Below are positions 14,486-45,970 of a DNA stretch of 64,000 bases, one piece after another; the first letter of the stretch is position 1, and every line of letters starts with the position of its first letter. Both the position numbers and the translations under genes were made by a program. The notes under the pieces were generated by a model. It worked only from the letters and a program-made list of their open reading frames with translations, ran no database searches and was not told the origin of the DNA. Source of the DNA: Candidatus Eiseniibacteriota bacterium. GTDB lineage: Bacteria > Eisenbacteria > RBG-16-71-46 > JABDJR01. The DNA lies in NCBI GenBank assembly GCA_963783375.1, contig CAWANH010000028.1, forward strand, positions 832,001 through 896,000, given 5' to 3'.

Positions 14486-15181
14486 ATGCGCATCGCGACG
14501 ATGGCGATCCTGATTCTGCTCGCGTTCGTGGCTCCGGCGGCGGTATCCGCCGCCACCCCCGCTCCCGGCACCTACACCACGATCACCGGGGATTTTCTGA
14601 ACGGCCGGGGTTCGGAATCCTGGCGAAACGCCCCCGACAACAAGTCGTGGGACCACGTCTTCAACAGCGAATCCTGGGACGGGAGCGCGCTCGGAACCGA
14701 GTGGTACACCCGTTGCGGGGTCGGCAACACCTCGGTGACCTCGGTCAGTCTGGACGCCAACGGCACCGGCAGCATCACCTACCAGACCGTCTACACGGGG
14801 GGGATCTTCTGGCTCTCCAAGAACGGGCCCTGGGGTGACGGGGTCAACGACCAAAGCGGCATTCTGAACCAGACCATGGAGAACACCACGGTTCAGATGG
14901 TGGATAGTGTCGCGGTGGCCGCGGTGTCCAACATCCACACCTCCGGCATCTTCGATTCCGGCTGTACCCTGACCTTCGCGATCGGAAATGGCAGCGGTCG
15001 CGGCGATACGGACCTGCTGGCCAAGCCGGCCGACTATCCCGACTTCCTGGACCTCGCCTGCGCGTCCGGGAACCGCGACCGGGGCAGCTGGGGGGATCTC
15101 CTCACCATCACCATGGAGATCGACTGCCCGACCCCGGTCGAACCCACGACCTGGGGAGCGGTCAAGGTCAGATACCAGTAG
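14486..15181 (+). CDS. Secreted Cys-containing beta-rich protein with TWGxxK C-terminal tail
   Basis: GGAGG SD, signal peptide, ends PTPVEPTTWGAVKVRYQ. Confidence 0.85.
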   Translation: MRIATMAILILLAFVAPAAVSAATPAPGTYTTITGDFLNGRGSESWRNAPDNKSWDHVFNSESWDGSALGTEWYTRCGVGNTSVTSVSLDANGTGSITYQTVYTGGIFWLSKNGPWGDGVNDQSGILNQTMENTTVQMVDSVAVAAVSNIHTSGIFDSGCTLTFAIGNGSGRGDTDLLAKPADYPDFLDLACASGNRDRGSWGDLLTITMEIDCPTPVEPTTWGAVKVRYQ

Positions 15182-15491
15182 GAAGGACCTTCGCCCCCGC
15201 GGTGATTCCAGCCCTCTCACCGCGGGACGGCGCAGTGAGTTGCGCGGAGAGAGGCAGACCTCCCCGCGTCCGGCCCGGCCGGGCGCGGGGCCTCCCCGCC
15301 GGCAAGGCCCTTCCGCTCTTCCCCGCCTTGCTCCGGCCTCCGCGCTCCAATGGAGGGCACATAGGACGGACCCGTCCGGACGTGCAGGAGCGACCCGGCA
15401 AACCGCCGGGCGTCGCCGGCACGTCCGCGGGTAGCCGACGGCCGAGCCCGGCCAGTGCCACGTCGGGCCTCGGCTTCGGAGGAGGATCGAG

Positions 15492-18400
15492 ATGAAGCGG
15501 CTCTCTTGGATTCCGGTGTTCGTACTGCTCGCGGCCATGTGTTTCGGCGCCGGTCTCGCACGACCCGCCGAGGCCACGGTATACCACCTGGTTGGAGGCG
15601 CACCCTACGCGGCCGCCTCGTTTGCCGAGCACGACAACTCCCAGGCTTACCTGGGATCCGGCGCCTGGTCGGAGACCTATCCCGCGGTGGGCGACGTATT
15701 CCAGATGTACATCAGCCCGGCCCAGTTCGGGACATCTTTCACGGTAGGTGATATCCAGAGCATCACCTACCACACCATCAACGGCGCGACCAATCCAAGC
15801 GACGTGGACTTCTATCTGAAGATCTACACCGAGCCGTACGTCGGCGGGGACGCGAGCTGGTACGGGAACCGGCTGAACGCCGAGCCGCTCTACTCCAACA
15901 GCTACGTGGGGCCCTCGGCTTGGGTCTGGAACACCTGGACCACGGACTCCGGGACGAACCAACTCACTTTCTTCGACTCCAATCACTGCGGCAACCTCGG
16001 CTTTTATGGGGGGGCCACCCTTCAGGACCTGACCGGTGGCTCGATCACCTGGTCCAGCTACGCGGGAGCGGGCGCGACGGCCGAGACCACTCCGATCGAC
16101 TACGCCAGCCAAGTGGTCAAGTATCTGAACTTCTCCACCGGCTCCGGCTGGGCGTCCTTCCACGGTTACATCGACGCCATCACCGTGGCCCTGACCAACG
16201 GGGACAGCTACGTCATCGACCTCGAGAGCACCACCGACCCGACGTACGTGGACGACGACTGGGCCGGAACCGCGCCGGGGGTCGAGGTCGCCTCCGGCAA
16301 GTTTTTCGGGTACAACGCCTTCGATAATATCCAGGACGGCATCGACTACGTTTCGGGGAGCACGGTGTACGTGGCTGCAGGCCACTATCCGATCAGCACC
16401 CCGATCGTCTGCAACATTCCGGTGGAGTTGAGTGGTCCGCAGGCCGGGGTCGACCCGCGGCCCTCGGCCGCCTCCAGCCGGACTCCCGGCGACACGCTGA
16501 GCGAGGCGGTGGTGGACGGGGGATACTCGACCGCGACGCTCCTCACCGTGGCCGCCGATGACGTGGTGATGGACGGTCTGGAGTTCACAAATGGGACGGG
16601 CGACCTCGTGGCCTCATCGGCCTCCGCCCCTATCAAGTATCGTACCCAGGTGCGGAACTGCATCATCCACGACTCCAGCGGCGACGAAGGGATGCAGCTC
16701 CGGAACGTCACCGACGGAACCGTCGAGCGGAACCTCGTCTACAACACCGCCGGCGATGGCATCAACATGTGCTGCGGGACCACCGGCTCGACGATCCAGG
16801 ACAACGAGGTTAGGGACATCGACAGCGACAACGGCGCCATCTACATGTACGAGACCACGAACATGCTCGTACAGCGGAACCTCGTCTACAACACCTCTCA
16901 GAACGACGGCATCAAGATGGGGGCTAAGGGAGGCGCCGACGCCGACTCCTCGGGCGGGCAGATCCTGGACAACGTGATTCACGACACCGATCAGGACGGA
17001 ATATCGATCTACACCAGCGACGTTGAGGTTTGCGGAAACGAGATCTACGGGAGCACCAGCGAAAACGGCGCCTTCTACGTCGCCTTCAACGTTGATAATG
17101 TCCAGGTCACCAAGAACCGCATTCACGACAACGGCTCCACTATGGATGCGAGGACCACCTACGGGATTCGGGTGGGCCGGGGTAGTTACCACCCGACCAA
17201 CGTGCTGATCCACGACAACGACGTCAAGGGCAACGAAGAGGGCCTTTTCAACAACAACGCCACCGGGCCGGCCCTGAACGCCGAGAGCAACTGGTGGGGA
17301 GACGCGAGCGGCCCGAGCGGCGACGGCTCCGGAACCGGCGACTCCATCACCGGCGGAAACGTCGATTTCACGCCCTGGCGCCTCATGGCCACCGGCGTGA
17401 CCGCCTGCTCCGGGAGCCCGGTGGACAACCCGGTGACGCCGGATCCGGCGGATTCGTGCCTGACCGCGGCGACGCCGTGCAACACGGTGAGCTTCGACAT
17501 CACCCGGTCCGAATGCGATTGGGATGCGTGCGTTCAGCGTGACCTTCCAGCTGAGCAGCGAGCTGGAGCTGTGCACGGGGAACCTGGGAGACATCGCGGA
17601 GGGGACGTACCTGAGCGGCGTCGGCGGCACGAACTTCCAGGTGCTGGACAACACCGGGGGATCCTACACGGTGGACGGTGCCATCCTGGGACTCCCCTGC
17701 GGGGCGACCGCCTCGACGGGGGCGCTGTTCACGGTGAACGTGACGAAGAGCGATTCGGCGTCGGCGGAGGATACGGGAACCATCACCGTGACCTCGGTGA
17801 CGTTCCGGGACTGCTAGAACGCTCCGATTCCCGGGATCGCCGGTGGAACGGGGACGCTGGACATCGACACGTCGGCGCCGGCGGCGATCGGCGACCTGGC
17901 GGCGACGCAGGAGAAGAGCGGGAACGGGTCGGACGGGACGACGAACATCGATCTGTCCTGGAGCGCGGTGACGGAGCCGGACGCGGACATGATCGAGATC
18001 TACCGCGCCGGCTTCGGTTACTATCCGGAGTACGACGACGCGGGCGGGTCGGTGCCGGCGACGCCGAGCTATCCGCCGTCGGGGGCGTGGACCCTGGCGG
18101 GGACGGTGGCGGCGACCGCGACGAGCTACTCGGACGAGCCGACGACGCGGGACTTCTGGTACTACATGGCGTTCGTGAAGGACCTGTGCGGGAACGTGTC
18201 GGCGGTGTCGAACCAGACGGGTGGGACGCTGAACTACCACCTGGGAGACGTGGCGCCGGCGGGGACGGGGAACAACGACTGGTCGAGCTGGCGGACATCT
18301 CGCTGATCTGGGCTTCGCACTACGGGATCAGCCTGAGCCCGGCCTCGGCGACGCGTTCAACTACCTGGACGTGGGCCCGACGACGGACTACAGCGTGGAC

Positions 18401-19165
18401 GCGCGTCCGACGACGGACAATCAGATCCAGTTCGAGGATCTGATCATGTTCGCGATCAACTACGGCCAGGTGTCGAAGCCGGGGATGCGTCCGGCGGGAG
18501 CGGAGAAGAACGCGGTGTCGCTGGAGATGCCGTCGGAGCTGGGCGGGACGTTCGAGGTGGGGATCGAAGCCTCGTCGGACGGAACGATCCAGGGGATGAC
18601 GCTACCGCTCCGTTGGAACGGGGAGGTGGTGGAGCCGATCGGGTTCACGGAAGGCGAGCTCGCGGGGCGTCAGGGCGGCCAGGTGCTGGTGCTGTCGCCG
18701 AAGCCGGGGACGGTGGACGCGGCGGTGTTCGGCTCGACGCTGAGAGGAAGCGGAGAGCTGGCGCGGGTGCGGTTCCACCGGATCGCCGCGGGAGACCCGG
18801 GGATCGGGTTCGGCGCGGTGGAGGCCCGGGACGGCCAGAACAAGAAGGTGGAGCTGGGGACGGAGACGGCGAAGCCGGGAGTGGCGTTGACCACGCGGCT
18901 CTTGCCGAGCGCTCCGAACCCGTTCCAGGCGTCGACCGGGATCCGGTTCGCCATGAAGGAGGCGGGCCCGGTGCAGGTGGACGTGTACGGTCTGGACGGC
19001 CGGCTGGTGCGGACGCTGTTGAACGGGACGCAGCCGGCGGGCGAGCGGACGGTGACCTGGGACGGCCGGGACAGCGCCGGCCGGGAGGTGGCGTCGGGAT
19101 CGTACGTGATCCGGTTCGTGACGCCGCAGAAGAGTGAATCGCAGCGGATCGTGCGGTTGAGGTAG
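15492..19165 (+). pseudogene. Large secreted modular protein (beta-sandwich, parallel beta-helix, cohesin-like, FN3-like, dockerin-like, cohesin-like, FlgD-like CTD), interrupted in this assembly
   Basis: ORF pieces 15492-, 17524-, 17968-, 18371- are collinear with intact paralog 20060..23575; frameshift near 17510, TAG at 17815 opposite TCG, indels near 18275-18350; probably sequencing errors. Confidence 0.85.
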
Positions 19166-19321: not shown

Positions 19322-19912
19322 ATGGCGAAGACAGTCGATCGGAATCTCTTGACTCGCCTCCTTCCATCCGTCCTCATGTTGTTGGTGATCTCGGTGTTCG
19401 TGGCGGCACGGCCCGCCTCCGCCGTCGATCTCACCTTCTCGTGCGACAGTCCAGGCTGTCTGTTCGTCAATACGGACACCCTCTCCGTATCGGTCGACAT
19501 CGATGCCGGCACCACCGATCTCCGGGGAGCGTCCCTATCCATCCTGTTCGACTCCGGCGCAGTCATGCCGGTGGCGGTGGAAGCGGGATCCTTGTGGGAC
19601 GACTCGAGCTGTTCGCCTTTCCTGTCCTGGCTGAATCCCGGTTCGCCCGATTCGGTGTACGCGGATCTCGGTGGTCTGGGTTGTTCCGTGGACGGGCCCG
19701 GCTCCATCCTCGTCATCAAGTTCACCTGCGTCAGCCCGTCTCCGGGTGTGCTGAGCTGTGGGACCAACTACCTTCGGAACTCGGCGAACACCGCCCTCCC
19801 CTATACCTGCACCCCGACGACGGTGCAGTGCGAGATTCCCACGGCGGCTGAAGCCACCACCTGGAGCCTGATCAAGGCCATGTACTCTTCGGAGGGCCAT
19901 TCGAGACAGTAG
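19322..19912 (+). CDS. Secreted single cohesin-like domain protein with TWSxxK tail
   Basis: LSVSVDID...LRGASLSILFD...VEAGSL...GPGSILVIKF cohesin pattern; ends IPTAAEATTWSLIKAMY. Confidence 0.8.
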   Translation: MAKTVDRNLLTRLLPSVLMLLVISVFVAARPASAVDLTFSCDSPGCLFVNTDTLSVSVDIDAGTTDLRGASLSILFDSGAVMPVAVEAGSLWDDSSCSPFLSWLNPGSPDSVYADLGGLGCSVDGPGSILVIKFTCVSPSPGVLSCGTNYLRNSANTALPYTCTPTTVQCEIPTAAEATTWSLIKAMYSSEGHSRQ

Positions 19913-20059: not shown

Positions 20060-23000
20060 ATGAAACACATCATCTCGGTCCTGGCGTTGGCCATCGTCCT
20101 TTCGGCGGTGCCGTCAGCCGTCCGGGCCCAGTTCGTGAACGAGGACGTCTCCGACGCGGCCATGGCGGCGGAGTTCTCGCACAACTACGACGGCACGAGC
20201 ACTCTTGATGCCGTCACCGATATTGCCGGGCCCGGGGTGCGTTTCCAGGCCTCTCCAACGGTGGGGAGCGGGTCGTGGAAGATCGGCATCTCGGACGATT
20301 ATCCCGTCTCGGGGACCTACGGGTTTCCCCAGAACGGGTCCGTTTCCGGCTGGGGCGACTGGTCGGGCTACACCGCCTACCAGCTTCACTTCCTGAACAA
20401 CGGGCCCGGGTGGGTGTACGCCAAGGTGTACTTCAACACCACTTCCTCGGGATATTACAACTCATCCGGCGGGATCTGGATCGCTCCCGGCGACGACGGC
20501 GTGGACACCATCTATCTGGTGGGAATTCCCTATCTGGACCAGATCTCGAACTTCGGCTTCGAGCTCTTCACCAACTACGGCACCGGGGCCTACGAGGCCA
20601 CCAGCTTCGACGTCACCGTGACCGCCGAGCCCATTCCCGCCACGAACGAAGTCTGGGTGGACGGCGCCTGGGCGGGGAGCAACCCGGGGCAGCCGGTGGG
20701 GGCCGGGCCCTACACCTACGGCTACAACGCTTTCGACACCATCCAGGATGGGATCGACAACGTCTCCGGAAGTATCGTGAACGTGGCCCCGGGAACCTAC
20801 GCCGGCGGCATCACCATCACGCATTCCGTCCAGATCCTGGGCTCCGGCGACGGGTCGAACCCCGGGGCCGACACCATCGTGAGCCTCCTGGCCGGGCAGA
20901 CCGGGTTCAACCTCCTGGCCGGAGGGAACTCGGCGGTGGACCGTCTGGAGATACGGGACCTGCGGGTCACCGGCGGAATTCGCGCGATCTACACCGACTC
21001 CGCCGTCGATTACCTGACCTTCGACAACCTCACCCTCACCGGCGCGTCCACCTACGGGATCGAGATCCACAACAGCGCGGTGGTGAATGACGTGGCGATG
21101 ACCGATTGCGACCTGGTCGGAAATGCCACCGCGATGCGGGTGCGCGGCCAGCTAGACGGGCTCGTCATGACCGATGGCCACCTGGACGGGAACACCAACG
21201 GTCTCTACTCGGTGGCGGGCGCTCCCTACATCTTCCGGAACGTCTCGGTGAGCGGCACCACCTTCGACAACAACTCCAACAAGGGTATGTATCTGGAAAT
21301 GCTGAGCGACGCCACGTTCGACGGGATCAGCGTGGCCTCGAGCGGGACCTCGGGGTCCTTCGCCGCGGGCATCGACATCAACCTGAAGGGATCGGCCTAC
21401 CAGAACATCGCCATCACCAACAGCTCGGTGACCGGGTGTGGGACCGGCGACCCGGTGAACGGGGTGGGCATCACGATCAAGGCCCGGGACGACGGATCCT
21501 ATGCGGGCACCCCCGCCACCCTCACCAACGTGGACCTGAGCGGATGCACGATCACCGGCAACCAGAACGGCCTCCGGTTCGGTGAGCCCGGCAAGAACAA
21601 CGCCGGCCCGACGGCCGTAGACGTGCACCAGTGCGACATCACCGGGAATCTGGGCACCGGTCTGGACAACCAGACCCTGGCCACGGATTCCGCGACCTGC
21701 AACTGGTGGGGAACGGTGCTGGGCCCGAACGATCCCCCGGCGAACATCTCCTCCGGGGACGCGGTGGCCGGGACCGTCACTTACTCCCCGTGGCTGGACG
21801 GGTCGATTTCGGGGACGCCGGCGTGCAACCAGACCGGGAACCCGGTGACGCCGGATCCGGAATCGACGTGCCTGACCGCGGCGACCCCCTGCAACACGGT
21901 GAGCTTCGACATCACCCGGACCGACGCGGCCGGGATGCGTGCGTTCAGCGTGACTTTCCAGCTGAGCAGCGAGCTGGAGCTGTGCACGGGAAGCCCGGGA
22001 GACATCGCGGAGGGGACGTACCTGAGCGGGGTCGGCGGAACGAACTTCCAGGTGCTGGACAACACCGGGGGGTCCTACACGGTGGACTGCGCGATCCTGG
22101 GACTTCCCTGCGGGGCGACGGCGGCGACCGGGACGCTGTTCACGGTGAACGTGAAGGCGAGCGGAACGGCGTCGTCGGAGGATACGGGAACCATCACCGT
22201 GACCTCGGTGACGTTCCGGGACTGCTCGAACGCTCCGATTCCCGGAACGGCGGGCGGTGTGGGAACGCTGGACATCGACACGTCGGCGCCGGCGGCGATC
22301 GGCGACCTGGCGGCGGTGCAGGTGAAGACGGGGAACGGCAGCGACGGGACGACGAACATCGATCTGTCCTGGAGCGCGGTGACGGAGCCGGACGCGGACG
22401 TGATCGAAATCTACCGCGCCGGCTATGGCGACTATCCGGAGTACGACGACGGCACGGGTACGGTGCCGGCCACGCCGAGCTATCCGCCGTCGGGGGCGTG
22501 GACGTACGTGGCGACGGTGGCGGCGACCGCCACGAGCTACTCGGATGAGCCGGCGACACGTGACTTCTGGTACTACACGGCGTTCGTGAAGGACCTGTGC
22601 GGGAACGTGTCGGGGGTGTCGAACCAGACGGGTGGGACGCTGAACTACCACCTGGGGGATGTGACGAACGGGTCGGTCAACGGCCAGGGCGACAACCTGG
22701 TCTCGTTGGCCGACATCTCTCACCTGGGCGCCAACTACGGGGCGACCTTGGTGTTCAACGACCCGTTCAACTACCTGGACGTGGGCCCGACGACGGACTA
22801 CAGCGTGGACGCGCGCCCGACCACGGACAATCAGCTCCAGTTCGAGGATCTGATTCTGTTCGCGATCAACTACGGGGCGGTGTCGAAGCCGGGGATGCGT
22901 CCGGCGGGATCGGAGAAGAACGCGGTGTCGCTGGAGATGCCGTCGGAGCTGGGTGGGACGTTCGAGGTGGGGATCGAAGCCTCGTCGGACGGAACGATCC

Positions 23001-23575
23001 AGGGGATGACGCTACCGCTCCGTTGGAACGGGGAGGTGGTGGAGCCGATCGGTTTCACGGAAGGCGAGTTCGCGGGACGTCAGGGGGGCCAGGTGCTGGT
23101 GCTGTCGCCGAAGCCGGGGACGGTGGACGCGGCGGTGTTCGGGTCGACGCTGAGGGGAAGCGGTGAGCTGGCGCGGGTGCGGTTCCACCGGATCGCGGCG
23201 GGGGACCCGGGGATCGGGTTCGGCGCGGTGGAGGCCCGGGACGGCCAGAACAAGAAGGTGGAGCTGGGAACGGCGACGGCGAAGCCGGGAGTGGCGTTGA
23301 CCACGCGGCTCCTGCCGAGCGCTCCGAACCCGTTCCAGGCGTCGACGGGGATCCGGTTCTCGTTGAAGGAGGCGGGCCACGTCCGGGTGGACATCTTCAG
23401 CACCGACGGCCGCTTGGTGCGGACGCTGATGGACGGCGGATTGCCGGCCGGAGAGCGGACGCTGACCTGGGACGGTCGCGACGGCGCCGGCCGGGAAGTG
23501 GCGTCGGGATCGTACGTGATCCGGTTCGTGACGCCGCAGAAGAGTGAATCGCAGCGGATCGTGCGGTTGAGGTAG
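20060..23575 (+). CDS. Large secreted modular protein (CBM-like, beta-helix, cohesin-like, FN3-like, dockerin-like, cohesin-like, FlgD-like CTD)
   Basis: Intact 1171 aa ORF; signal peptide; FDTIQDGID...VAPGTY beta-helix cap; NWWG; DLSW...IYR...YY FN3; PNPF...WDGRD...SGSY CTD. Confidence 0.92.
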   Translation: MKHIISVLALAIVLSAVPSAVRAQFVNEDVSDAAMAAEFSHNYDGTSTLDAVTDIAGPGVRFQASPTVGSGSWKIGISDDYPVSGTYGFPQNGSVSGWGDWSGYTAYQLHFLNNGPGWVYAKVYFNTTSSGYYNSSGGIWIAPGDDGVDTIYLVGIPYLDQISNFGFELFTNYGTGAYEATSFDVTVTAEPIPATNEVWVDGAWAGSNPGQPVGAGPYTYGYNAFDTIQDGIDNVSGSIVNVAPGTYAGGITITHSVQILGSGDGSNPGADTIVSLLAGQTGFNLLAGGNSAVDRLEIRDLRVTGGIRAIYTDSAVDYLTFDNLTLTGASTYGIEIHNSAVVNDVAMTDCDLVGNATAMRVRGQLDGLVMTDGHLDGNTNGLYSVAGAPYIFRNVSVSGTTFDNNSNKGMYLEMLSDATFDGISVASSGTSGSFAAGIDINLKGSAYQNIAITNSSVTGCGTGDPVNGVGITIKARDDGSYAGTPATLTNVDLSGCTITGNQNGLRFGEPGKNNAGPTAVDVHQCDITGNLGTGLDNQTLATDSATCNWWGTVLGPNDPPANISSGDAVAGTVTYSPWLDGSISGTPACNQTGNPVTPDPESTCLTAATPCNTVSFDITRTDAAGMRAFSVTFQLSSELELCTGSPGDIAEGTYLSGVGGTNFQVLDNTGGSYTVDCAILGLPCGATAATGTLFTVNVKASGTASSEDTGTITVTSVTFRDCSNAPIPGTAGGVGTLDIDTSAPAAIGDLAAVQVKTGNGSDGTTNIDLSWSAVTEPDADVIEIYRAGYGDYPEYDDGTGTVPATPSYPPSGAWTYVATVAATATSYSDEPATRDFWYYTAFVKDLCGNVSGVSNQTGGTLNYHLGDVTNGSVNGQGDNLVSLADISHLGANYGATLVFNDPFNYLDVGPTTDYSVDARPTTDNQLQFEDLILFAINYGAVSKPGMRPAGSEKNAVSLEMPSELGGTFEVGIEASSDGTIQGMTLPLRWNGEVVEPIGFTEGEFAGRQGGQVLVLSPKPGTVDAAVFGSTLRGSGELARVRFHRIAAGDPGIGFGAVEARDGQNKKVELGTATAKPGVALTTRLLPSAPNPFQASTGIRFSLKEAGHVRVDIFSTDGRLVRTLMDGGLPAGERTLTWDGRDGAGREVASGSYVIRFVTPQKSESQRIVRLR

Positions 23576-23772: not shown

Positions 23773-24417
23773 ATGAAGACCATACTCATAATCATGGCGG
23801 TCGGTCTGCTCGCGCTCGAGGCGCCGTCGGTCGCGCTGGCCGCCGATGCCAGCTCGGGGATCTCCGATGCGTGCCAGCTCCAGTGGGTCCGGGATCACCG
23901 GGATGGCCCCGGCACCCTCGCCGCGGGGTATCCCGTCCTCGCCTCCCCCGCGGGAGTGCGGTGGGTCGCCGACTCCCCGGGGTCCGGCTCCTGGGAGATC
24001 CAGATCGGGGACGCCTACGATACCCCGACCACCGGGGCGGGGATGTTGAGCTGCTACGGTTTCCCCACGTCGGCGACGCTCCTGGACTGGAGCGGCTATA
24101 CCAGCTTCAGCATGAAGTTCACGAACAACGATCCGGTCAACGGCTTCTCCGTCCAGCTCATCATCAACACCGGGGCGACGGCGAGCGGCGAAGTCAACAA
24201 CCTCTACTCGACCCCGCTGGAAGCGGTGGCTCCCGGGGGGGCGCACTCCCTCACCCTGTCCCTGGCCGGCGTGGCCAACCTGAACCACGTCTCCAACGTC
24301 TCCTTCAAGCTGGTCGCCGACACGGATCAGATCGACGTCAGGGTGGAGCCCGAGTTGCCCCCGGTTCCGACCGAGCCGACGACCTGGGGGGTGCTGAAGA
24401 GCCGGTACACGAACTGA
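23773..24417 (+). CDS. Secreted single CBM-like beta-sandwich protein with TWGxxK tail
   Basis: Signal peptide; domain clearly homologous to N-terminus of 26076..28439 (CQxQWxRDxRDGPG, IQIGDAYDTP, CYGFP, NLNHVSNVS); ends PVPTEPTTWGVLKSRY. Confidence 0.88.
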   Translation: MKTILIIMAVGLLALEAPSVALAADASSGISDACQLQWVRDHRDGPGTLAAGYPVLASPAGVRWVADSPGSGSWEIQIGDAYDTPTTGAGMLSCYGFPTSATLLDWSGYTSFSMKFTNNDPVNGFSVQLIINTGATASGEVNNLYSTPLEAVAPGGAHSLTLSLAGVANLNHVSNVSFKLVADTDQIDVRVEPELPPVPTEPTTWGVLKSRYTN

Positions 24418-24474
24418 TGAAGGCGTCGACGGGCCGTCCGATGGTCCGCTCGAGCCGGAAAGAGGATGGGTGAT

Positions 24475-24504
24475 GGGGACCGGTCCGGCGCCGGACCGGT
24501 CCCC
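24475..24504. repeat. Perfect 30-bp palindrome between cluster genes
   Basis: GGGGACCGGTCCGGCGCCGGACCGGTCCCC; related 12-bp stem TGGGGACCGCGC/GCGCGGTCCCCA at 19223..19252. Confidence 0.85.
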
Positions 24505-24513
24505 CACCGACCC

Positions 24514-25986
24514 ATGACGGAACTGCGGTGCGCCGGCCGGAAGCGGATACCGGTCCGGCCGGCGCCGGTCTTCCTCATTGTGGCCCTGTTGACCGTCCTC
24601 GGGGCCCCCGGCTGGGCCGGGGCCTCGGGCACCGCCGTGGATGTGATCCCGGCGCCGGGCCCGGTGGCCCGTTCGGTGGCGGTGGGGACCTGGCACCTCC
24701 TCACCACGGGGGACTGGGCCTTCCAACCGTCCGAACCCATCACCCACCTGGAGGTGGCGATCTATGACAGCGCCACGACCCTGGAGCGCGGGTCGGGCCC
24801 CTTCCCGTTCTCGACGAGGCGGAATTCCGGACCCGGTGTGGACGGACCGGAGGATGCTTCAGGCGACCTGGGCTGCGAATCCACCCCGGGCGTGCTCTGC
24901 GACAGTAACCAGAAGCTGTTCGGAAAGCCGCACTACGAGTCGTTGCGCCTCTATGGCGGCAGTCTCTCCGCCGGTTCCGGATATTCCCTGGGCTTCAGCG
25001 GGCCGGTTCCCTCCCAGGTCTGGATCCATCCGATGCGACCCGACTACTTCACGATGTCCACCACCGTGCTCCAGAGCGGCGAGGCCAAGCTTCAGACCGC
25101 GGCCTACGGGCCGGCCACGGTCACGCGGGTGCTGAGCGGCTCGGAGACCCGCTTCGTCTACAGCGGTCTCACCGACCAGTCCGCCACCGGGGTCAAGGAC
25201 GACTACCCGGTTCAGAGCTACGGGCAGCGGCCCGGTTCCCACGGTAACGGCGACTTCGGCTGGTTCTCCGGCTACTCGCTCCGGTTCACCAACGAAGGGC
25301 CGGACCCGATCCACGTGAACCTGTTCATGAACACCGGCTTCACCGGGGTGAGCGGAAACCCGACCTCCACCCTGGCCAACGACACCTTCTGGAAGGGGAG
25401 CGAGATCTACCTGACCCCCGGGAATTCGGGTCTGGCCTGGCTGGATTTCGACGACGTCACCGGTTGGACCCTGTCCGACAACCCCGTTCCCCACACCGGA
25501 GGCGGGGAGTCGTGGCCGGAGGGAACCTCGGGGATCGCGATCAACGTGTTCGACCGCCTCCAGGTGAGCGCGATCGGCTGGGAGGTCCGGCTGGCCCGCG
25601 CCGGCACCGGGTCGGCGACCCTCCTGGTCGCCCCGGAGGCCTCCGACCGCTACGCCGTGCCTCCGGTACAGGTCGGGATCGGCGCGGACCTCGGGAGCCG
25701 CGCCCCAGGGTTCTACCCTCCCCGGCCCAACCCCTTTCACACGACGACCCGGATCCCCTTCGCCCTCCCCGGCCCGGCGCCGGCGCGGGCCGTGATCCGG
25801 GTGTTCGACCCGGCGGGACGACTGGTCCGCGTCCTGCTCGACGAAGTGATTTCCCCCGGTCCCGGCTCCGTCTCCTGGGACGGCCGGGGCGACGATGCGA
25901 TGCCGCTTGCCGCGGGGGTCTACTACCTGCGGATGGATGTCACCGGACGTCCCGCGGCGCGCCGCGCGGTGATTCTGCTCGATTGA
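24514..25986 (+). CDS. Secreted protein with CBM-like domain and FlgD-like CTD
   Basis: Signal-like segment, DDYPV...FSGYSLRFTN...NLFMNTG shared with paralogs; PNPF...WDGR...AGVY; start uncertain. Confidence 0.8.
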   Translation: MTELRCAGRKRIPVRPAPVFLIVALLTVLGAPGWAGASGTAVDVIPAPGPVARSVAVGTWHLLTTGDWAFQPSEPITHLEVAIYDSATTLERGSGPFPFSTRRNSGPGVDGPEDASGDLGCESTPGVLCDSNQKLFGKPHYESLRLYGGSLSAGSGYSLGFSGPVPSQVWIHPMRPDYFTMSTTVLQSGEAKLQTAAYGPATVTRVLSGSETRFVYSGLTDQSATGVKDDYPVQSYGQRPGSHGNGDFGWFSGYSLRFTNEGPDPIHVNLFMNTGFTGVSGNPTSTLANDTFWKGSEIYLTPGNSGLAWLDFDDVTGWTLSDNPVPHTGGGESWPEGTSGIAINVFDRLQVSAIGWEVRLARAGTGSATLLVAPEASDRYAVPPVQVGIGADLGSRAPGFYPPRPNPFHTTTRIPFALPGPAPARAVIRVFDPAGRLVRVLLDEVISPGPGSVSWDGRGDDAMPLAAGVYYLRMDVTGRPAARRAVILLD

Positions 25987-26075: not shown

Positions 26076-28439
26076 ATGAAGAACAAGACCCTTTTCTTCG
26101 TCGGCGTACTTCTGGCCGCGGTATTCGTCGGGTCGGCCCTCGCCGACGACGCGGCCCTGGGAATCGGCGACGGCTGTCAGATGCAGTGGATCCGGGACTT
26201 CCGCGACGGGCCCGGGCTTATTGACGCCGGTTATCCCGTGGACGTTCCCGGTCCCGGCGTGCAGTGGCAGGTGTCCCCTCCCGGCGGAGTCATGTCCGGC
26301 GATTTCTGGGACATCCAGATCGGCGACGCCTACGACACGCCGTCCACCGGGTCCGGGCTCCTGACCTGCTACGGGTTCCCGGTGACCTCGGGGTTCGCGA
26401 ACTGGACCGGGTTCGACACCTACTCCATGACCTTCCACAACAACAGCGCCACCGACTGGTTCATGGCCGACGTGGTCATCAACACCGGATGGACCAATCT
26501 CCCCTACAGCGAGCCGGACAACGCCTACGCGGCTGGATGGACCTGGGTGCCGCCGGGCGAGTCGCGCACCGTGGTCCTGGACCTGGTCGCCGCCTCGGCG
26601 GTGAACCTCAACCACGTCTCCAACGTCTCGATCAAGCTGGGCACCAATTACGGCACCGGGCCCTACGAGGGGACCCACATCGACGTGACCGTGAACCCCC
26701 CCGACAACGTGACCCCCGATCCCAGCGGGCTCTGCATCTCCACCGTGACCCCCTGCGTCACGGTGCCGGTCGATCTCGTCCGTTCGGACGTCAACGACGC
26801 CCGCGGCGCCAGCGTGACCTTCCAGCTCAGCCCGGAGCTGGAGCTCTGTGACTCGACCCCCGCCAACAGCATCCACCAGGGCACCTGGTTGAACGGGTAC
26901 TTTACCCAGTTCCAGGTCGTCGACAACGGGGGCGGCTCCTACACCGTGGACCAGGCCATCTTCGGGATGCCCTGCGGGGTCACGACCGGAGGCCAGCTCT
27001 TCACGGTGGACGTGAAGGCCAGCGGGACGGCGGCGGCCGACGACGAGGGAACCATCACCGTGACCCAGGTCCTGGTCCGGGATTGCGGGAACGCCCCCCT
27101 GCCCGGCGTGCCGGGGAACCCCGCGACGGTGACCATCGACCGGACCGCGCCCACCCCCATCGCCAGCCTGGCCGCGAGCCAGGTCAAGACCGGCAACGAC
27201 ACCGACGGGACGACCAAGATCATGGTGGGCTGGCCGCCGGTGGAAGCCGGGGCCACGGTGGCGGTGTACCGCAAGGGCTTCGGGTTCTACCCCGAGTACG
27301 ACGACAACGGCGGGACGGCGCCCACCGCCCCGGCCACCCCGGCCGCCGCTCCGGGGGCGGGCTGGACGCTGACCCCGGTCACCACGTCGCCTTCGGCCGA
27401 TGAGCCCGCGGTTCGCGATTTCTGGTACTACGTGGCCTTCGTCACCGATGCCTGCGGAAACGTCTCGGGGCCGTCCAACCTCACCGGCGGGACGCTGGAC
27501 TATCACCTGGGCGACGTCAGCAACGGCGCGTCCCCGGGGACCGGGAACAACTCGGTGGGCCTGGAGGACATCTCCATCCTCGGGGCCAACTACGGGATCT
27601 CCCTGGCTTCGAACGATCCCGTCAACTACCTGGACGTGGGACCCACTTCCGACAACAGCGTCGACGGGCTCCCCGACACCGACAACCAGGTGCAGTTCGA
27701 GGACCTGATCCTGTTCGCGATCAACTTCGGCGCGGTCGGAAAGCCGGGGCTCCACGCCGCCGACGCGGGGGTGACCCGCTTGACCCTCTCCGTCTCCGAC
27801 GTTCCCTCCCCGGGATCGTTCTTCGACGCCGTCATCGGGGCCAAGGCGGGTGGAGAAGTTCAGGGGATCTCGGTGCCCTTGCGCTGGAATCCCGAGGTCG
27901 TGGAGCCGGTCTCCTTCGAGGCCGGCGACCTGGCCGATCTCCAGAGCGGCCGCACGCTGGTGCTGTCGCCGAAAGCCGGGACGGTCGACGCCGCGGTGTT
28001 CGGGGGAACCTTCCGCGGCGAGGGCGCTCTGGCCTCGGTTCGCTTCCGGGTGAAGGCCCCCGGCGACCCGGGCATCGCCTTCGGGGACGTCCTGGCCCGG
28101 GATCCCGCCAACCGGCCGGTGGAAGTTGCGCTGGGACGGGGGGGCATGGACGTCGTGCCGGCGGGGACCCGCCTCCTCCCCGCCTCTCCCAACCCGTTCC
28201 TCGGCGCGGTGGGGATCCGCTTCGCCCTGGCCGAGGACGCTCCGGTGCGGGTGGACGTTTACGCCTTGGACGGCCGCCTGGTCCGCCGGTTGGTGGATGC
28301 GCGACTCCCCGCCGGGGAGCGGACCGTGAACTGGGACGGCCGGGACGGATCGGGCCGGGCGACCGCGTCCGGGTCCTATCTGATCCGGTTCAGCACTCCC
28401 GGGACCGTTCAGACCCAGAAGGTGATTCGCATGAGATAA
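26076..28439 (+). CDS. Secreted scaffold-like protein (CBM-like, cohesin-like, FN3-like, dockerin-like, cohesin-like, FlgD-like CTD)
   Basis: AAGGAG SD; diverged third copy of the constant module; no beta-helix. Confidence 0.92.
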   Translation: MKNKTLFFVGVLLAAVFVGSALADDAALGIGDGCQMQWIRDFRDGPGLIDAGYPVDVPGPGVQWQVSPPGGVMSGDFWDIQIGDAYDTPSTGSGLLTCYGFPVTSGFANWTGFDTYSMTFHNNSATDWFMADVVINTGWTNLPYSEPDNAYAAGWTWVPPGESRTVVLDLVAASAVNLNHVSNVSIKLGTNYGTGPYEGTHIDVTVNPPDNVTPDPSGLCISTVTPCVTVPVDLVRSDVNDARGASVTFQLSPELELCDSTPANSIHQGTWLNGYFTQFQVVDNGGGSYTVDQAIFGMPCGVTTGGQLFTVDVKASGTAAADDEGTITVTQVLVRDCGNAPLPGVPGNPATVTIDRTAPTPIASLAASQVKTGNDTDGTTKIMVGWPPVEAGATVAVYRKGFGFYPEYDDNGGTAPTAPATPAAAPGAGWTLTPVTTSPSADEPAVRDFWYYVAFVTDACGNVSGPSNLTGGTLDYHLGDVSNGASPGTGNNSVGLEDISILGANYGISLASNDPVNYLDVGPTSDNSVDGLPDTDNQVQFEDLILFAINFGAVGKPGLHAADAGVTRLTLSVSDVPSPGSFFDAVIGAKAGGEVQGISVPLRWNPEVVEPVSFEAGDLADLQSGRTLVLSPKAGTVDAAVFGGTFRGEGALASVRFRVKAPGDPGIAFGDVLARDPANRPVEVALGRGGMDVVPAGTRLLPASPNPFLGAVGIRFALAEDAPVRVDVYALDGRLVRRLVDARLPAGERTVNWDGRDGSGRATASGSYLIRFSTPGTVQTQKVIRMR

Positions 28440-28569: not shown

Positions 28570-30252
28570 ACGCGCACCGCAAACCGACGATTCATCACCA
28601 CCGCTCTCGGCGTTCTCCCGGCCGCCGTGCTGGCGATCGGGAACGCGGGGGGAGAGCCGGGCAGGATCACCGCCGGCAGCTCGAGCGCGCTCTCCCTTCC
28701 CGGCATGGTCTCGGTCAAGGACGGCGATTTTCTCGCGGACGGTCAATCGATCCACTTCGCCGGCACGAACTGCTACTACCTCATGGTTTTCGCCGCCGAC
28801 CCGGCGCTTCGCCCCCAGGTGGACGAGGTTCTCGAGGAGTCGGCGGCCATGGGCCTCACGGTGATCCGCACCTGGGCTTTCAACGACGGAACCGGCTGGA
28901 ACGCTCTTCAGACCGCGCCGGGGGTCTACGACGAGACCGTGTTCCAGGGGCTGGATTACGTGCTCGACCGGTGCGACCGGCTCGGGCTTCGGGTCGTGCT
29001 TCCCCTGGTCAACAACTGGGTCGACTACGGGGGCATGGACCAGTACGTGGCATGGAGTTCCACCGCGGCCTACCACGACGCCTTCTATACGGACTCCGAC
29101 TGCCGAACCTGGTACCTGAACCACGCCGCGGCGGTCATCAACCGGGTGAACACCGTGAACGGCCGCCTCTATCGCGACGATCCCACCGTCTTCGCCTGGG
29201 AGCTGGCCAACGAGCCGCGCTGCCCCTCGGACCGGAGCGGGACCACGCTGGCCACGTGGATCGCGGACATGAGCGCCTCGATCCGGGCTCTGGACCCCAA
29301 CCACCTCATCACCAGCGGCGTCGAGGGGTTCTACGACGATCCCTCCGGCCCCTGGTACCTGAACGGCTGGGAAGGGGTCGATTTTGTGAGGGACCACCAG
29401 GCTCCGGACATCGATTACGCGGTGGCCCACAGCTGGCCGGACAACTGGGGCTTGGGGTTCTCCGCGGTCATGGCCCTCGTCTCCCGGCAGATCGGGGACG
29501 CGGCCGGCGTGCTGGGAAAACCCTTCGTGTTGGAGGAATTCGGCAAGGCTCGTGACGCCGCGTCTCCGGCGGCCGTGAACCACTTCGACCCGAACACCTG
29601 GTTCTCCCCGGAAGTGGAGCCCTACACGGTGCGTGGCGCGGCCCCGGTCCGGGTGGATCCGGCCCGGCGGGCCCGGCTCTACACCTCCGGCGATCGTCCC
29701 GGGTCCGGGGCTCGCCTCCCGGAGGCTCCGGTTAGGGTATCCTCGTCCACGTCGACCCGGGACGCCTTCTTCTCCGCGTGGTTCGACAGTCTGCTCGCCA
29801 ACCGCTCCGGGGGGTCCACCTACTGGATCGCCTACGACGACGCCTATCCCGACTACGACGGATACGGGGTCTACTATCCGGCCGACTCCTCCACGGTGAG
29901 CCTGATCGAGGCCCACGCCCAGGCCATGGCGGCGCTCACCGAGAGCACCGGAATCCTGGACCCCGACCGGCCGGGGCCCCGCCGTCTCGCGGGCTATCCG
30001 AACCCCTTCCGGCGGTCGGTCAATCTGGCTTTCGATCTCGCGGAAGGGGAGGGAGAGGTTCGTATAGACGTGATCGACGTGGCGGGACGTCGACTGCGCA
30101 CCCTGATCGACGGCCCGGTCGGCCCGGGACCGCTGGTGATCGCCTGGGACGGAAGTACGGATTCCGGGGGGAGGGCCGCGGCCGGAGTCTATCTGGTTCG
30201 TCTCCGGACCTCCCGGGAATCCACGGCCACTCGTGTCGTGCTGACCCGCTGA
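28570..30252 (+). CDS. GH5 glycoside hydrolase (endo-beta-1,4-mannanase-like) with FlgD-like CTD
   Basis: GTNCYYL, IRTWAF, NNWVDYGGMDQY, WELANEPRC (acid/base), LEEFG (nucleophile), PNPF CTD; in-frame signal peptide begins at an ACG at 28570 (first canonical start is GTG 28627). Confidence 0.9.
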   Translation, partial: TRTANRRFITTALGVLPAAVLAIGNAGGEPGRITAGSSSALSLPGMVSVKDGDFLADGQSIHFAGTNCYYLMVFAADPALRPQVDEVLEESAAMGLTVIRTWAFNDGTGWNALQTAPGVYDETVFQGLDYVLDRCDRLGLRVVLPLVNNWVDYGGMDQYVAWSSTAAYHDAFYTDSDCRTWYLNHAAAVINRVNTVNGRLYRDDPTVFAWELANEPRCPSDRSGTTLATWIADMSASIRALDPNHLITSGVEGFYDDPSGPWYLNGWEGVDFVRDHQAPDIDYAVAHSWPDNWGLGFSAVMALVSRQIGDAAGVLGKPFVLEEFGKARDAASPAAVNHFDPNTWFSPEVEPYTVRGAAPVRVDPARRARLYTSGDRPGSGARLPEAPVRVSSSTSTRDAFFSAWFDSLLANRSGGSTYWIAYDDAYPDYDGYGVYYPADSSTVSLIEAHAQAMAALTESTGILDPDRPGPRRLAGYPNPFRRSVNLAFDLAEGEGEVRIDVIDVAGRRLRTLIDGPVGPGPLVIAWDGSTDSGGRAAAGVYLVRLRTSRESTATRVVLTR

Positions 30253-30297: not shown

Positions 30298-31122
30298 ATG
30301 AAAAGACACAACATCAAGCCTCCTGGTCTTCGGAACATCCTTGCGCTGGGTCTTCTCCTGATCGGCGCCCCCGCCTTCGGTCAGGGCATTCACGTGGATC
30401 TGCTTCCCGCTGCACCGACGGTCAGCCAGGGGGATACCTTCGATCTCGAGATGACGGTGGCCGCTCCCAGCGACAGCTTCAACGCGTTCGATGCCACCCT
30501 CACCTTCGACGACAGCCTCCTGACCTTCATCCCCCTGAGCACATCCGTGCGCGAGGGGCCGCTCATGACGTCCGCGTGCTCGAACCGCTTTCGTATCTTC
30601 AGCCAGCAGGGAGGCGACATCAGCCTCACCCTCGGTCTCTTGTGCGCCGGCGTGAAGGTGGCCGGTCCGGGGGTGATCTTCCGGTTCCGCTTCCAGGCGG
30701 CGGTGCCCGGTCCGGTGCAAACCGCGGTCAGAATCACCTCGCTGCGGTTCGCCGACGCCGGTATCTACGTGAACCCGGTGACCTCCAGCGATGCGACGGT
30801 GACCATCGGAAGCACGACCGGATTGCCGGACGGGGGATATCCCGTTCGCCCGGAGCTCCGTGCGGCCCCCAACCCCTTCCGGACTGCTACGGAGATCGTC
30901 TTCACTCCCCGGGTCGACGGTCCGGTGCGGATCGAGATCTTCGCGGTGGACGGGCGGAGGGTCCGCACCCTTCTCGATGGGCCGGCGCTCGCGGGTACCG
31001 AGGTGCGGGCCGCATGGGACGGTCGTTCAGATGGGGGGGCTGCCGCTCCGGCCGGGGTCTACTTCGCCTCGGTCGCGAGTCCGGAGGGGCGCTCGGCCGC
31101 CCGGGTAGTGCTCCTGCGTTGA
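30298..31122 (+). CDS. Secreted cohesin-like domain protein with FlgD-like CTD
   Basis: GDTFDLEMTV...FNAFDATLTFD...EGPLM...GPGVIFRFRF; APNPF...WDGRS...AGVY. Confidence 0.85.
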   Translation: MKRHNIKPPGLRNILALGLLLIGAPAFGQGIHVDLLPAAPTVSQGDTFDLEMTVAAPSDSFNAFDATLTFDDSLLTFIPLSTSVREGPLMTSACSNRFRIFSQQGGDISLTLGLLCAGVKVAGPGVIFRFRFQAAVPGPVQTAVRITSLRFADAGIYVNPVTSSDATVTIGSTTGLPDGGYPVRPELRAAPNPFRTATEIVFTPRVDGPVRIEIFAVDGRRVRTLLDGPALAGTEVRAAWDGRSDGGAAAPAGVYFASVASPEGRSAARVVLLR

Positions 31123-39157: not shown

Positions 39158-39209
39158 GAGACGCGGGAGGGAACCGGGCCGGGCATCCGATCCGCCAACG
39201 GAGGACAGC

Positions 39210-40616
39210 GTGAACCTGTACGACAGCATTCCGAATAACGTGAACCTGGCCGACGACCCGCGGCTCAAGCGGGCGCTCGAGAAGTGGCTCCCCGACTTCC
39301 GCTCGTGGTGGATGGACATGGGTCCGGCGGGATTCCAGGAGGACGACGTCTACCTCCGCACCGCGATCAGCGTGGACCCCAAGGGGTGGGCCCACTTCGA
39401 CTACGTGAAGATGCCCGAGTATCGCTGGGGGATCTTCCTGGCCGAGCCCGGGACCGACCGCCGGATCGGGTTCGGGGACCAGCTCGGCCAGCCGGTGTGG
39501 CAGGAGGTGCCGGGAGAGTATCGGGGCATGCTCCGCCGGCTCATCGTGACCCAGGGTGACACCGAGCCGGCCAGCGTGGAGCAGCAACGACTCCTTGGGC
39601 GGACCTGCCCGAGTCTCTACGACCTGCGGAACCTCTTCCAGGTGAACGTGGAGGAGGGGCGCCATCTCTGGGCCATGGTGTACCTCCTTCACGGATTCTT
39701 CGGTCGCGACGGGCGCGAGGAAGCGGAGGCGCTGTTGGCCCGCCGCTCCGGCGATCCCGACAAGCCGCGGATCCTCGGCGCCTTCAACGAGCCGATCCAG
39801 GACTGGATGTCCTTCTACATGTTCACCATGTTCACCGACCGGGACGGGAAGTACCAGCTCCTGGCCCTGGCCGAAAGCGGTTTCGACCCGCTTTCGCGCA
39901 CCACCCGCTTCATGCTCACCGAGGAGGCCCACCACATGTTCGTGGGCGAGACCGGCGTGGGTCGCGTGGTGGAGCGCACCGCCCAGCTCATGAAGGAGTC
40001 GCCGGACGGCGACGTCCGCAAGGCCGGCGGCGTGGACCTGCCCACCGTCCAGAAGTACCTGAACCTCTGGTTCTCCCTGTCCCTGGACCTGTTCGGCGGC
40101 GAGAAGTCATCGAACGCGGCCGACTATTTCGCGGCGGGCCTCAAGGGGCGATACCGGGAGGAGCAATACGAAGACCACCTGGCGATGGAGGGCGTCTACG
40201 ACATGGAGCTTTCCGAAGGCGGAAAGGTGGTGAGGGAGTCGGTGCCCACCCGGAACGCCATGAACGAAATCCTGCGCGACGCCTACGTGGACGATTGCCA
40301 GCGCGGGGTGGACCGGTGGAACAAGATTCTGGCCAAGCACGGGATCGAGTTCGAGCTGAAGCTTCCCCACCGCCGCTTCCACCGGCAGATCGGCACGTTC
40401 CAGGGACTCCACTTCACCCCCCAGGGGGATCCGCTCACCGAGGCGGAGTGGAGCCGCCGCCGGGGGGAATGGCTTCCCGGCGACGGCGACAAGGAATACG
40501 TGCGCTCGCTCATGCACCCGGTGACCGAGCCGGGGAAGATCGCCGGCTGGATCGCTCCCCCGCCGCGCGGGGTCAACGGTCAGCCTTTCGAGTTCGAGTA
40601 CGTGAGGAAGGCCTGA
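39210..40616 (+). CDS. boxB: Benzoyl-CoA 2,3-epoxidase di-iron subunit
   Basis: IPNNVNL, TQGDTEPASVEQQR, VEEGRH, TEEAHH, FEYV. Confidence 0.96.
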   Translation: MNLYDSIPNNVNLADDPRLKRALEKWLPDFRSWWMDMGPAGFQEDDVYLRTAISVDPKGWAHFDYVKMPEYRWGIFLAEPGTDRRIGFGDQLGQPVWQEVPGEYRGMLRRLIVTQGDTEPASVEQQRLLGRTCPSLYDLRNLFQVNVEEGRHLWAMVYLLHGFFGRDGREEAEALLARRSGDPDKPRILGAFNEPIQDWMSFYMFTMFTDRDGKYQLLALAESGFDPLSRTTRFMLTEEAHHMFVGETGVGRVVERTAQLMKESPDGDVRKAGGVDLPTVQKYLNLWFSLSLDLFGGEKSSNAADYFAAGLKGRYREEQYEDHLAMEGVYDMELSEGGKVVRESVPTRNAMNEILRDAYVDDCQRGVDRWNKILAKHGIEFELKLPHRRFHRQIGTFQGLHFTPQGDPLTEAEWSRRRGEWLPGDGDKEYVRSLMHPVTEPGKIAGWIAPPPRGVNGQPFEFEYVRKA

Positions 40617-41531: not shown

Positions 41532-42560
41532 AAGGGAGGCGGGCGGGGGAGACGAGGGGAGCGGGCCGGGAGGAGGGGGGAAGAGGACAGGGGGGGAGGG
41601 CACGAGGGCGAGGGAAGCGCGCGGGCGGAGGCCGGGCGGCGCGCAGAGACGGCGGGCGCGGGAAAGAACGCGCGGAGGCGCGAAGGCGCGGCGAGCGGGA
41701 GAGCCGCGGCGAGACCGCGCCCCGGCGCAGGCGACGGGGGGGCGCCGGAGCGCGGCAGGGGCGGCGGCGGCGGCGCGAAGACCGGCGCCCCCGGCCGGCC
41801 GAGGACCGCCGGGAGGGAGGGCGGCGGGCGGCGGAGACGAGCCGCGGCACGGGGGAGACGGCCGGCAGGGGGGAGACGGCCGCCCGCGCAGGCCGGGGAG
41901 GAAGACGCGGCCGGGGCGCGACGCCGGGAGGGCGGCCGGAGCGGCGCCGGCGGAACCGGCGACGCGCGAACCGCGGCGGCGAGCCCGCGGCCCGCGGCAG
42001 CGAGTGCCCGGCGGTCGGCCGGGCGAGGCGGGGCGCGCCCGGGCCAGGGCCGAGGGGACGCGTCCGGCGCGGGGTGGAGGTCAGCGGCGCCGGCGGGGGC
42101 GCGGCGAGACGGGCGGCGACCCGCGGGACGCGAGGGCGGCCCGCGGACGACGGGCGGGACGAAGACGGCCGCGGGGGCGGGCCGCCGCACCCGGGCGAGG
42201 CCGGGCGGCCCGGCCGAGGCGGAAGGACCGCGCCGGCGCGGGGACCGGCGCCGGGCCGGCGGGCGACGGCGACGCGGCCCGAAGACCGACGGGGCGCGCC
42301 GCGGAGCGCCGCGCGCGGCCGCGCGGGCGGGGCGCCGGGGGCGGCGGGGGGGCGCGCGCGGGCCGCCGCGGCGGCGCGGGGCGCCCGCGGCGCGGGCGGC
42401 GGGCGGGCCGGGCCGCCGGGCGCGGCGCGGGGCGGGGCGCGGGGGCGCGGGGGCCCGGGCGGCGCGGCGGCGGGGGCCGCCGCCAGGGGCGGCGGGGGTG
42501 CGCCGGGCCCCAGCGAGGGTAGGCGCGCGCGCCGCGGGCGGTCGCGGCGGGGGGGGGGGG
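41532..42560. other. Low-complexity G-rich, almost T-free tract (probable consensus artefact)
   Basis: I count 8 T in about 1030 nt, none from 41532 to 42004; both flanking genes degrade toward it. Confidence 0.8.
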
Positions 42561-42563
42561 GCG

Positions 42564-44019: not shown

Positions 44020-44032
44020 CCGCGCGTTACCC

Positions 44033-45469: not shown

Positions 45470-45553
45470 GGCGCCCCCTCCTTCCCCTCGTCGCGGACAC
45501 TCCCGGAAGGGGACGCTAGCACCCCGAGGGGGGCCGCGGGTAGCGCGAGGTTG

Positions 45554-45970
45554 CTAGTCGTCCTCTCCGCCGTAGAGGGCCTTGATCCGGCCCCAGGTGG
45601 TGGCCTTGACCGGAACGTCGTTGTTCACGGTCACCGTCCCGGTCATGCCCAGCCCGAAGTGGAACTGGCAGTAGTAGGGAATCATCCCGGTGATGGTGAA
45701 GGTGTATTCGAAGGTCGCGTTGCCGTTGTCGAGGGGGGCGTCGAACAGGGCGCCGGCGTCCGGGGAGTTCGGGTTCACGCCGTTGGTGACGGTATGAATG
45801 CCGTCGTTCCAGTGCCAGCGGACCGTGTCCCCCTTGTCGATGGTGATCTCGGATGGGTTGAAGACGAACCCCTGCTGCTGTACGTCGTGCACCGCGGCCG
45901 AAGCGGGGAGCGCGACGAGCAGGACCAGGAGGGCGAACGTGGCGTGGAGAACCAAGACGGGGCGGCGCAT
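45554..45970 (-). CDS. Secreted cupredoxin (type-1 copper) with TWGxxK tail
   Basis: FNPSEITIDKGDTVRW, H...YYCQFH..GM copper ligands; ends VPVKATTWGRIKALY. Confidence 0.9.
   Translation of the reverse strand: MRRPVLVLHATFALLVLLVALPASAAVHDVQQQGFVFNPSEITIDKGDTVRWHWNDGIHTVTNGVNPNSPDAGALFDAPLDNGNATFEYTFTITGMIPYYCQFHFGLGMTGTVTVNNDVPVKATTWGRIKALYGGEDD

Follow-up and report, generated by a model that had tools for sequence, protein, structure and literature searches.

Four secreted proteins encoded in a 64,000-nucleotide stretch of a Candidatus Eiseniibacteriota genome (contig CAWANH010000028.1, positions 832,001 to 896,000, hereafter the window) end in the same short peptide, a TWG- or TWS-type C-terminal tail. 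We find that this tail is a genuine, uncatalogued envelope tag that occurs across phyla. Sequence comparison indicates that its helix was probably copied from the C-terminal helix of LpA, one of two lipoproteins encoded downstream of a large predicted β-barrel. The distribution of the second lipoprotein and modelling lead us to favour, tentatively and at slightly less than an even chance, that the tail is a non-covalent docking tag read by the second lipoprotein, LpB, the predicted receptor. What is likely to be new here is a traceable probable origin for the tail together with a testable candidate receptor. A sequence-only reading of the window had placed the four tails correctly and had proposed that they act as an alternative to the FlgD-type C-terminal domain (CTD) in export or attachment; its reading of the tail as a signal by which exported proteins are sorted or docked stands, but the tail is not a strict substitute for the CTD.

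The tail is about 15 residues long and follows a Pro/Thr-rich linker. A position matrix gives the consensus P-[VT]-E-x-[TS]-[TS]-W-[GS]-x-[ILV]-K-x-x-Y, with Trp, a hydrophobic residue and Tyr/Phe at positions i, i+3 and i+7 and an invariant Lys. Most chains stop 8–12 residues past the Trp, and those of Poribacteria stop 1–5 residues past the Lys. In the source genome (4.73 Mb, 97% complete; G000) 75 matches score above 18, of which 61 have an N-terminal Sec signal peptide according to a hydrophobicity heuristic, the remainder being mostly fragments or mis-started open reading frames (ORFs). Among the 3,694 called genes there are 64 occurrences of the strict motif, of which 63 lie no more than 25 residues from the C-terminus and one directly behind a signal peptide. 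A six-frame scan also shows it concentrated immediately upstream of stop codons. The raw strict matches number 68 and the distinct ones 65; raw counts are inflated by stretches of large contigs that are duplicated on small ones (C11/C28:1896944, C14/C1:90797, C9/C28:1786466 and C24/C28:745698). Among 67 distinct tails the synonymous codon identity is 0.587, compared with 0.599 expected, and the downstream DNA is unrelated from tail to tail, with no DNA-level repeat; selection therefore bears on the protein and not on the DNA. The absence of a transmembrane segment, the portability of the tail and its presence on exported proteins were all borne out, whereas the marked amphipathy that had been attributed to its helix was not: the helical hydrophobic moment over nine residues is 0.30, not above that of shuffled controls (0.33), although a short C-terminal helix is indeed predicted by AlphaFold. 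No catalogued family accounts for the tail. Scans of the tail proteins against Pfam and NCBIfam returned no model covering it, a search of the ESM Atlas gave no usable match, and a literature search, for which most subscription papers and supplements were out of reach, found no description of the motif. A secreted 223-residue protein with the tag right behind its signal peptide (L025:4422-5093, minus strand; G000 C28:1279421-1280092) has a hydrophobic, Cys-rich C-terminal region that gives the impression of a bacteriocin and matches no family.

The tail extends well beyond the source genome. A profile built from 32 tails and searched in 1.84 billion proteins (E up to 0.001) matched 393 proteins; of the best 150 of these, 147 carry the motif no more than 25 residues from their end, two carry it further in and one is a repeat artefact. 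A DNA pattern scan of GTDB that did not demand a stop codon gave at least 126 distinct in-frame matches, and 77 of the 126 listed end an ORF, compared with 3.3% of random positions. Named carriers among the matches listed are Poribacteria, Eisenbacteria, Fermentibacteria, Krumholzibacteria and one Latescibacterota record, each lineage having its own flanking residues around a T-W-G-x-I-K core. Within its own phylum the tail is found in 94/94 genomes outside one family (f9), in which 12 of 26 genomes have 1–5 tails and 14 have none. In a negative-control phylum (genomes of 1.5–6.9 Mb) only two of 301 gave tail matches, both weak.

The carriers are signal-peptide proteins of unrelated folds, in which the tail lies beyond complete domains and of which tail-less paralogues are known. 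They range from 137 to 870 residues (median 231, n = 60), so that the tail is not restricted to small proteins as had been supposed from the window; CTD proteins have a median of 678 residues (n = 114). Choice-of-anchor domains owe their name to their switching among surface anchors. Five of 61 tail proteins match such domains over the cut-off (types X, X, E, V and W), and two others match choice-of-anchor F and PEP-CTERM PepA below it; in these proteins the tail occupies the anchor slot, in place of other surface anchors. Some lipoprotein carriers hold several copies, either four or five in tandem, at both termini or one per domain. A Cys-rich paralogous family comprises at least nine tailed proteins (G000 C29:1341600-1349400, C28:1096800-1100500 and C29:372000-374200), some with four or five inserted Big_5 Ig repeats (854 and 870 residues).

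By way of the multi-copy tailed lipoproteins we reached a conserved operon with the order ksgA, barrel, LpA, LpB, deacetylase-like gene and secD (G000 C28:943.3-952.2 kb; locus L286, 943300-952150), in which the LpB gene lies at C28:945968-946654. The barrel is a single-copy protein of about 600 residues that is predicted to be all-β, to have roughly 30 strands or more and to lack a plug domain. Searches of Pfam and NCBIfam found no family model for it and the ESM Atlas returned unnamed clusters only. Its structural matches are generic (best Z of 17.7 at a root-mean-square deviation of 9.8) and do not imply a novel fold; the top Foldseek TM-score, 0.46, is to MtrB, and the deviation is 8–10 Å from all solved barrels. 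The barrel is present in 21 of 23 tail genomes other than Poribacteria, with LpA adjacent in nearly all loci read. It also occurs in three of four f9 genomes and, among Bacteroidota genomes without tails, in 40 of 46. It was found in none of 11 named Poribacteria, where only chance-level pieces appear at E up to 1.

The two lipoproteins are both NTF2-like and are homologous to each other. LpB has the cone-shaped α+β fold of the SnoaL/DUF4440 type (Foldseek probability 1.0, TM-score 0.78 to 3rob), and 14 of 53 LpB-type rows match PF14534 weakly; LpA has no Pfam or NCBIfam model. The C-terminus of LpA reads T-W-G-x-L-[RK]-x-x-[YR], a median of eight residues past the last strand, with Thr and Gly at least 90% conserved (26 rows), and shares with the tail the core W-[GS]-x-hydrophobic-basic. 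The Fermentibacteria form is a near-canonical tail, and the copy in the source genome is degenerate. Compared directly, the LpA end and the tail profile match with a probability of 78.6 (E = 1.7e-5) over 13 columns. A related helix stands at this fixed short linker (median eight residues) in 53 of 67 LpA rows; among LpB-type rows it is seen in 13 of 60, on long linkers (median 25 residues) and scattered over several clades of a quick tree. Such scattered tails on long, variable linkers are what would be expected of later gains. LpA and LpB together occur in 46 of 121 genomes of the Bacteroidota phylum, where LpA ends in [ST]-W-S-x-L-K-x-x-F and LpB is tail-less (30 loci read), and where no other tails were found in 54 genomes (that search had no positive control of its own; the same model gives 3–110 matches elsewhere). 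We infer that the LpA helix is older than the tag, because both lipoproteins occur in Bacteroidota genomes without other tails and the helix would thus predate the expansion of the tag. All three operon parts, the barrel included, are found in tail-less deep-branching Bacteroidota.

LpB is the sole component that all the tail lineages tested have in common. Lipoproteins of its type are encoded in Eisenbacteria, Krumholzibacteria and Fermentibacteria, and in 60 of 61 Poribacteria with a profile that held four Poribacteria rows; the Poribacteria link to the LpB family had first been found without such rows, at E between 1e-7 and 4e-11. With a narrower profile the NTF2-like lipoprotein had seemed absent from Poribacteria, and the wider profile recovered it. 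The LpA profile finds only LpB-like, mostly tail-less proteins in three Poribacteria-type genomes. In Poribacteria there is also a second NTF2-like protein, anchored to the membrane by its N-terminus and equipped with a long acidic linker (L334:1498-2346, L335:1048-1908 and L331:1120-1977); two tailed LamG-like genes flank the L335 copy.

In the AlphaFold model of a tailed LpB paralogue the tail forms a paired strand (residues 202-204) and a helix (207-213) with a predicted local distance difference test (pLDDT) score of 93–94, and the linker ahead of it is disordered (pLDDT under 50–60). This placement implies, in the model, that the tail contacts the LpB-type domain in cis. If LpB reads the tag, a tagged protein would, after Sec export, present its short strand and two-turn helix, and the tag would fill the LpB site that is normally held by the LpA helix. 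Enzymes and binding domains would in this way be tethered to lipid-anchored LpB with its NTF2-like domain; several copies of the tag would provide higher avidity, and large proteins with both signals would use the CTD for transport and the tag for retention. The tandem and N-terminal copies, the lipoprotein carriers and the occurrence of the tag ahead of a CTD favour attachment over one-off export.

Several observations weigh against docking on LpB. Genomes in which tails are few or absent (f9 and Bacteroidota) likewise encode LpB, LpA and the barrel, whose presence therefore leaves the expansion of the tag unexplained. The AlphaFold contact is in cis and was built from 36 sequences, and the partner of the LpA helix could be LpA's own domain or the barrel and not LpB. 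Some 60–110 tagged proteins would depend on one or two LpB genes, and the near-complete Poribacteria count comes from a profile that includes Poribacteria rows. The match between LpA and the tail profile is short and could reflect convergence. Finally, the almost constant presence of SprA in tail genomes is compatible with an export role.

The relationship with type IX secretion bears directly on this last point. The source genome encodes SprA, 13 PorV-family matches and C25 (PorU-type) peptidases, with 127 FlgD/CTD matches. The tail nearly always goes with a type IX-like translocon, SprA being present in 32 of the 33 genomes that bear it. Of 15 control genomes, 13 have no SprA match and a Bacteroidota genome alone has a clear one; each has no or one weak tail match. 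The GldM/PorM motor was found in none of 16 genomes, with a positive control of 1/1, GldL, GldK and GldN having been left out of the search. SprA- and PorV-like genes are detectable in Poribacteria, in contrast to an earlier account that, in its accessible part, noted Poribacteria CTDs and found no secretion machine (PMC3909097). The either/or relationship proposed for the tail and the FlgD-type CTD holds in the source genome, where none of the 75 tail ORFs overlaps the 127 CTD matches, but not in Poribacteria WD40 proteins, a single family in which 40 of 118 homologues carry, by the strict pattern, the tail and then the CTD in one chain. Passenger domains interchange between tail proteins and CTD proteins. 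A similar junction of a small residue and Val is seen ahead of both signals, in 44 of 99 CTDs (background 5%) and in 37 of 59 tails. At least 11 PorV-family genes are present in the source genome, most of which have as neighbour either a single large CTD protein or a TonB-dependent receptor; these neighbourhoods suggest dedicated shuttle–cargo pairs in a motor-less system. The PorU–PorV operon runs on into an M6 protease and a predicted barrel of about 1,100 residues, weakly SprA-like, an arrangement conserved in Fermentibacteria and in family f9 (G000 C29:136830-151739, L188; L231). Exosortase was considered as a reader of the tail and rejected, as PF09721 occurs in one of five genomes tested; among tail-bearing genomes it was found in one of three, being absent from the Poribacteria and Fermentibacteria genomes, and rhombosortase and myxosortase were not searched.

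We may then ask whether the tail is itself a minimal outer-membrane export signal for a motor-less type IX-like translocon, in which SprA and a PorV-family shuttle would pass mostly single-domain cargo while large cargo would leave by its FlgD-type CTD. The distribution of SprA, the size split between the two classes of protein, their domain swaps and their common junction all agree with this, as does the report, in the part available of PMC12618676, that Flavobacterium has shuttles specialized for different signal classes. Yet tag and CTD occur in one chain, tail copies occur in tandem and at the N-terminus, and the four f9 genomes counted keep SprA, 9–10 PorV-like genes and 32–67 CTDs with no tails. 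Moreover, no PorV clade confined to tail-rich genomes was seen in a quick tree with weak deep support (loci for 30 of 51 matches), and even short type IX secretion system (T9SS) CTDs are β-sheets of 43–55 residues, as far as the accessible text of PMC11969387 goes. We consider an export signal of this kind unlikely. Less plausible still is a reading in which the plug-less barrel upstream of LpA would recognize its substrates by the tail and let small folded domains through, and in which LpA would gate or plug it with the same helix. Such a role would suit a large, all-β, single-copy protein with generic barrel matches and no family, its adjacency to LpA in most tail genomes and a cargo that is small or arranged as beads on a string, but the barrel was not found in the named Poribacteria, the most tail-rich lineage, and is common in tail-less Bacteroidota and in f9.

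A protein reader would be dispensable if the tail were a short membrane-binding helix, akin to a membrane-targeting sequence. The spacing of Trp, hydrophobic residue and Tyr/Phe and the invariant Lys would fit such a helix, and tandem copies would raise its affinity; its hydrophobic moment, however, does not exceed that of shuffles, the Poribacteria form ends very soon after the Lys, and the near-invariant T-W-[GS]-x-[ILV]-K with lineage-specific flanks suggests a shaped pocket, which leaves this explanation improbable. Lastly, we regard as scarcely credible that repetition of a DNA element, a structural role within each domain or chance accounts for the tail. In LpA the helix is a constant element of the protein, and there the sequence-only reading's concern that the motif might be integral to its domains does apply, to this ancestral family only. 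For the expanded copies, these three explanations are ruled out by the paralogue, ORF-end, codon and position data: there is no DNA-level repeat, the tail lies outside complete domains and is missing from some paralogues, and the GTDB matches end ORFs far more often than random positions do.

The docking on LpB that we favour recalls known systems in some respects. Dockerins are terminal, repeatable modules with calcium-binding EF-hand repeats, which tether varied enzymes to a few anchored cohesin receptors. The tail lacks such a repeat, is a quarter of the length and has an NTF2-like lipoprotein as its candidate receptor; PF00404 matched none of 65 tail proteins scanned. Like the T9SS type A CTD (TIGR04183, PF18962, here FlgD_ig PF13860-like, served by SprA, PorV and PorU), the tail stands at the C-terminus of Sec-exported proteins with many different folds, takes turns with the CTD on domains that both share, follows a similar linker junction and occurs in the same genomes. 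Unlike it, the tail is a predicted strand and helix of about 15 residues and not a β-domain of 43–108 residues (the accessible part of PMC11285876 gives 67–108 for T9SS CTDs), may lie ahead of a CTD, form tandem repeats or stand at the N-terminus, was lost separately in f9 and was not found in the Bacteroidota searched. No TIGR04183 or PF18962 match was found on the four window tail proteins or on 61 others. CTD-dependent anchoring to lipopolysaccharide is described in the available portion of PMC12860637. Tripartite sorting signals are recognized, in the accessible part of bioRxiv 10.1101/2023.06.07.544157, by a C-terminal position, many copies per genome and at least three near-invariant residues. 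The tail resembles these signals (PEP-CTERM/exosortase, MYXO-CTERM, GlyGly-CTERM and LPXTG) in lying near the C-terminus, in its many copies and invariant signature residues, and in its association with a signal peptide and unrelated passengers that include choice-of-anchor and PepA-like domains; it differs in having no transmembrane segment, no terminal Arg cluster and no sign of cleavage. The barrel operon, for its part, encodes a large outer-membrane barrel with lipoproteins, as LptD/LptE- or MtrB-type assemblies do, but with more predicted strands, two NTF2-like lipoproteins and no sequence family match.

In the window itself, tail and CTD proteins lie side by side. The tail proteins are all secreted: a TWG-tail protein of 231 residues with no recognized fold (14486..15181, + strand; motif at about 15125-15175), which has two tailed paralogues in the genome; a weakly cohesin-like TWS-type protein of 196 residues (19322..19912, + strand; motif at about 19835-19885, followed by eight extra residues; PF00963 at 21.2 bits, below the cut-off); a TWG-tail protein of 214 residues resembling a carbohydrate-binding module (CBM) (23773..24417, + strand; motif at about 24358-24408; weak PF21253 match); and a TWG-tail cupredoxin of 138 residues (45554..45970, − strand; motif at about 45572-45622, beyond a complete PF00127 domain), which has a paralogue without a tail on contig C3. 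The CTD proteins are all on the + strand. A secreted 1171-residue protein (20060..23575) combines a CBM-like N-domain, a β-helix and a FlgD-type/T9SS type A CTD (TIGR04183 at 28 bits, over the cut-off). Its paralogue (15492..19165), a β-helix protein with a FlgD-type CTD that is 88–92% identical to it in the C-terminal half, is read in three frames with two frame changes (an error or a pseudogene). These are accompanied by a secreted protein with a FlgD-type CTD (24466..25986), a secreted protein with a CBM-like domain and a FlgD-type/T9SS type A CTD (26076..28439; TIGR04183 at 26.6 bits), a GH5-like glycosidase with the same type of CTD (28627..30252) and a weakly cohesin-like domain with a FlgD-type CTD (30298..31122). 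Of the two domain swaps proposed from the window, that of the CBM-like domain is confirmed: the domain of 23773 is also at the start of the CTD proteins 26076 and 20060, and 23773 and 26076 share 49% identity over 163 residues. The cohesin-like swap between 19322 and 30298 is less secure, as two sub-threshold PF00963 matches are its sole basis and BLAST aligns 22 residues only. Further along, genes resembling boxC and boxB, which belong to the aerobic breakdown of benzoyl-CoA (37496-40616), were recognized from their translations.

The tag marks tens to more than 100 envelope proteins per genome in several uncultured phyla, among them dominant sponge symbionts, and a hidden Markov model of 15 residues would label many hypothetical proteins as envelope-located. 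A concrete, purifiable candidate peptide–receptor pair can now be named, and the unstudied barrel–lipoprotein operon also occurs in deep-branching Bacteroidota, whose cultured relatives permit genetics. We may go further and speculate, although we hold it to be somewhat unlikely as a whole, that at least four candidate phyla converted an ancient, hitherto unrecognized outer-membrane machine, in which two NTF2-like lipoproteins accompany a plug-less barrel with some 30 strands or more, into a general display route. Any small exported domain that copied the LpA helix would there be captured and shown at the surface, with neither sortase nor transmembrane anchor nor folded secretion domain. If the origin and the docking favoured here are right, they show how the copying of a structural helix can give rise to a sorting signal, and provide a very short tag for surface display.

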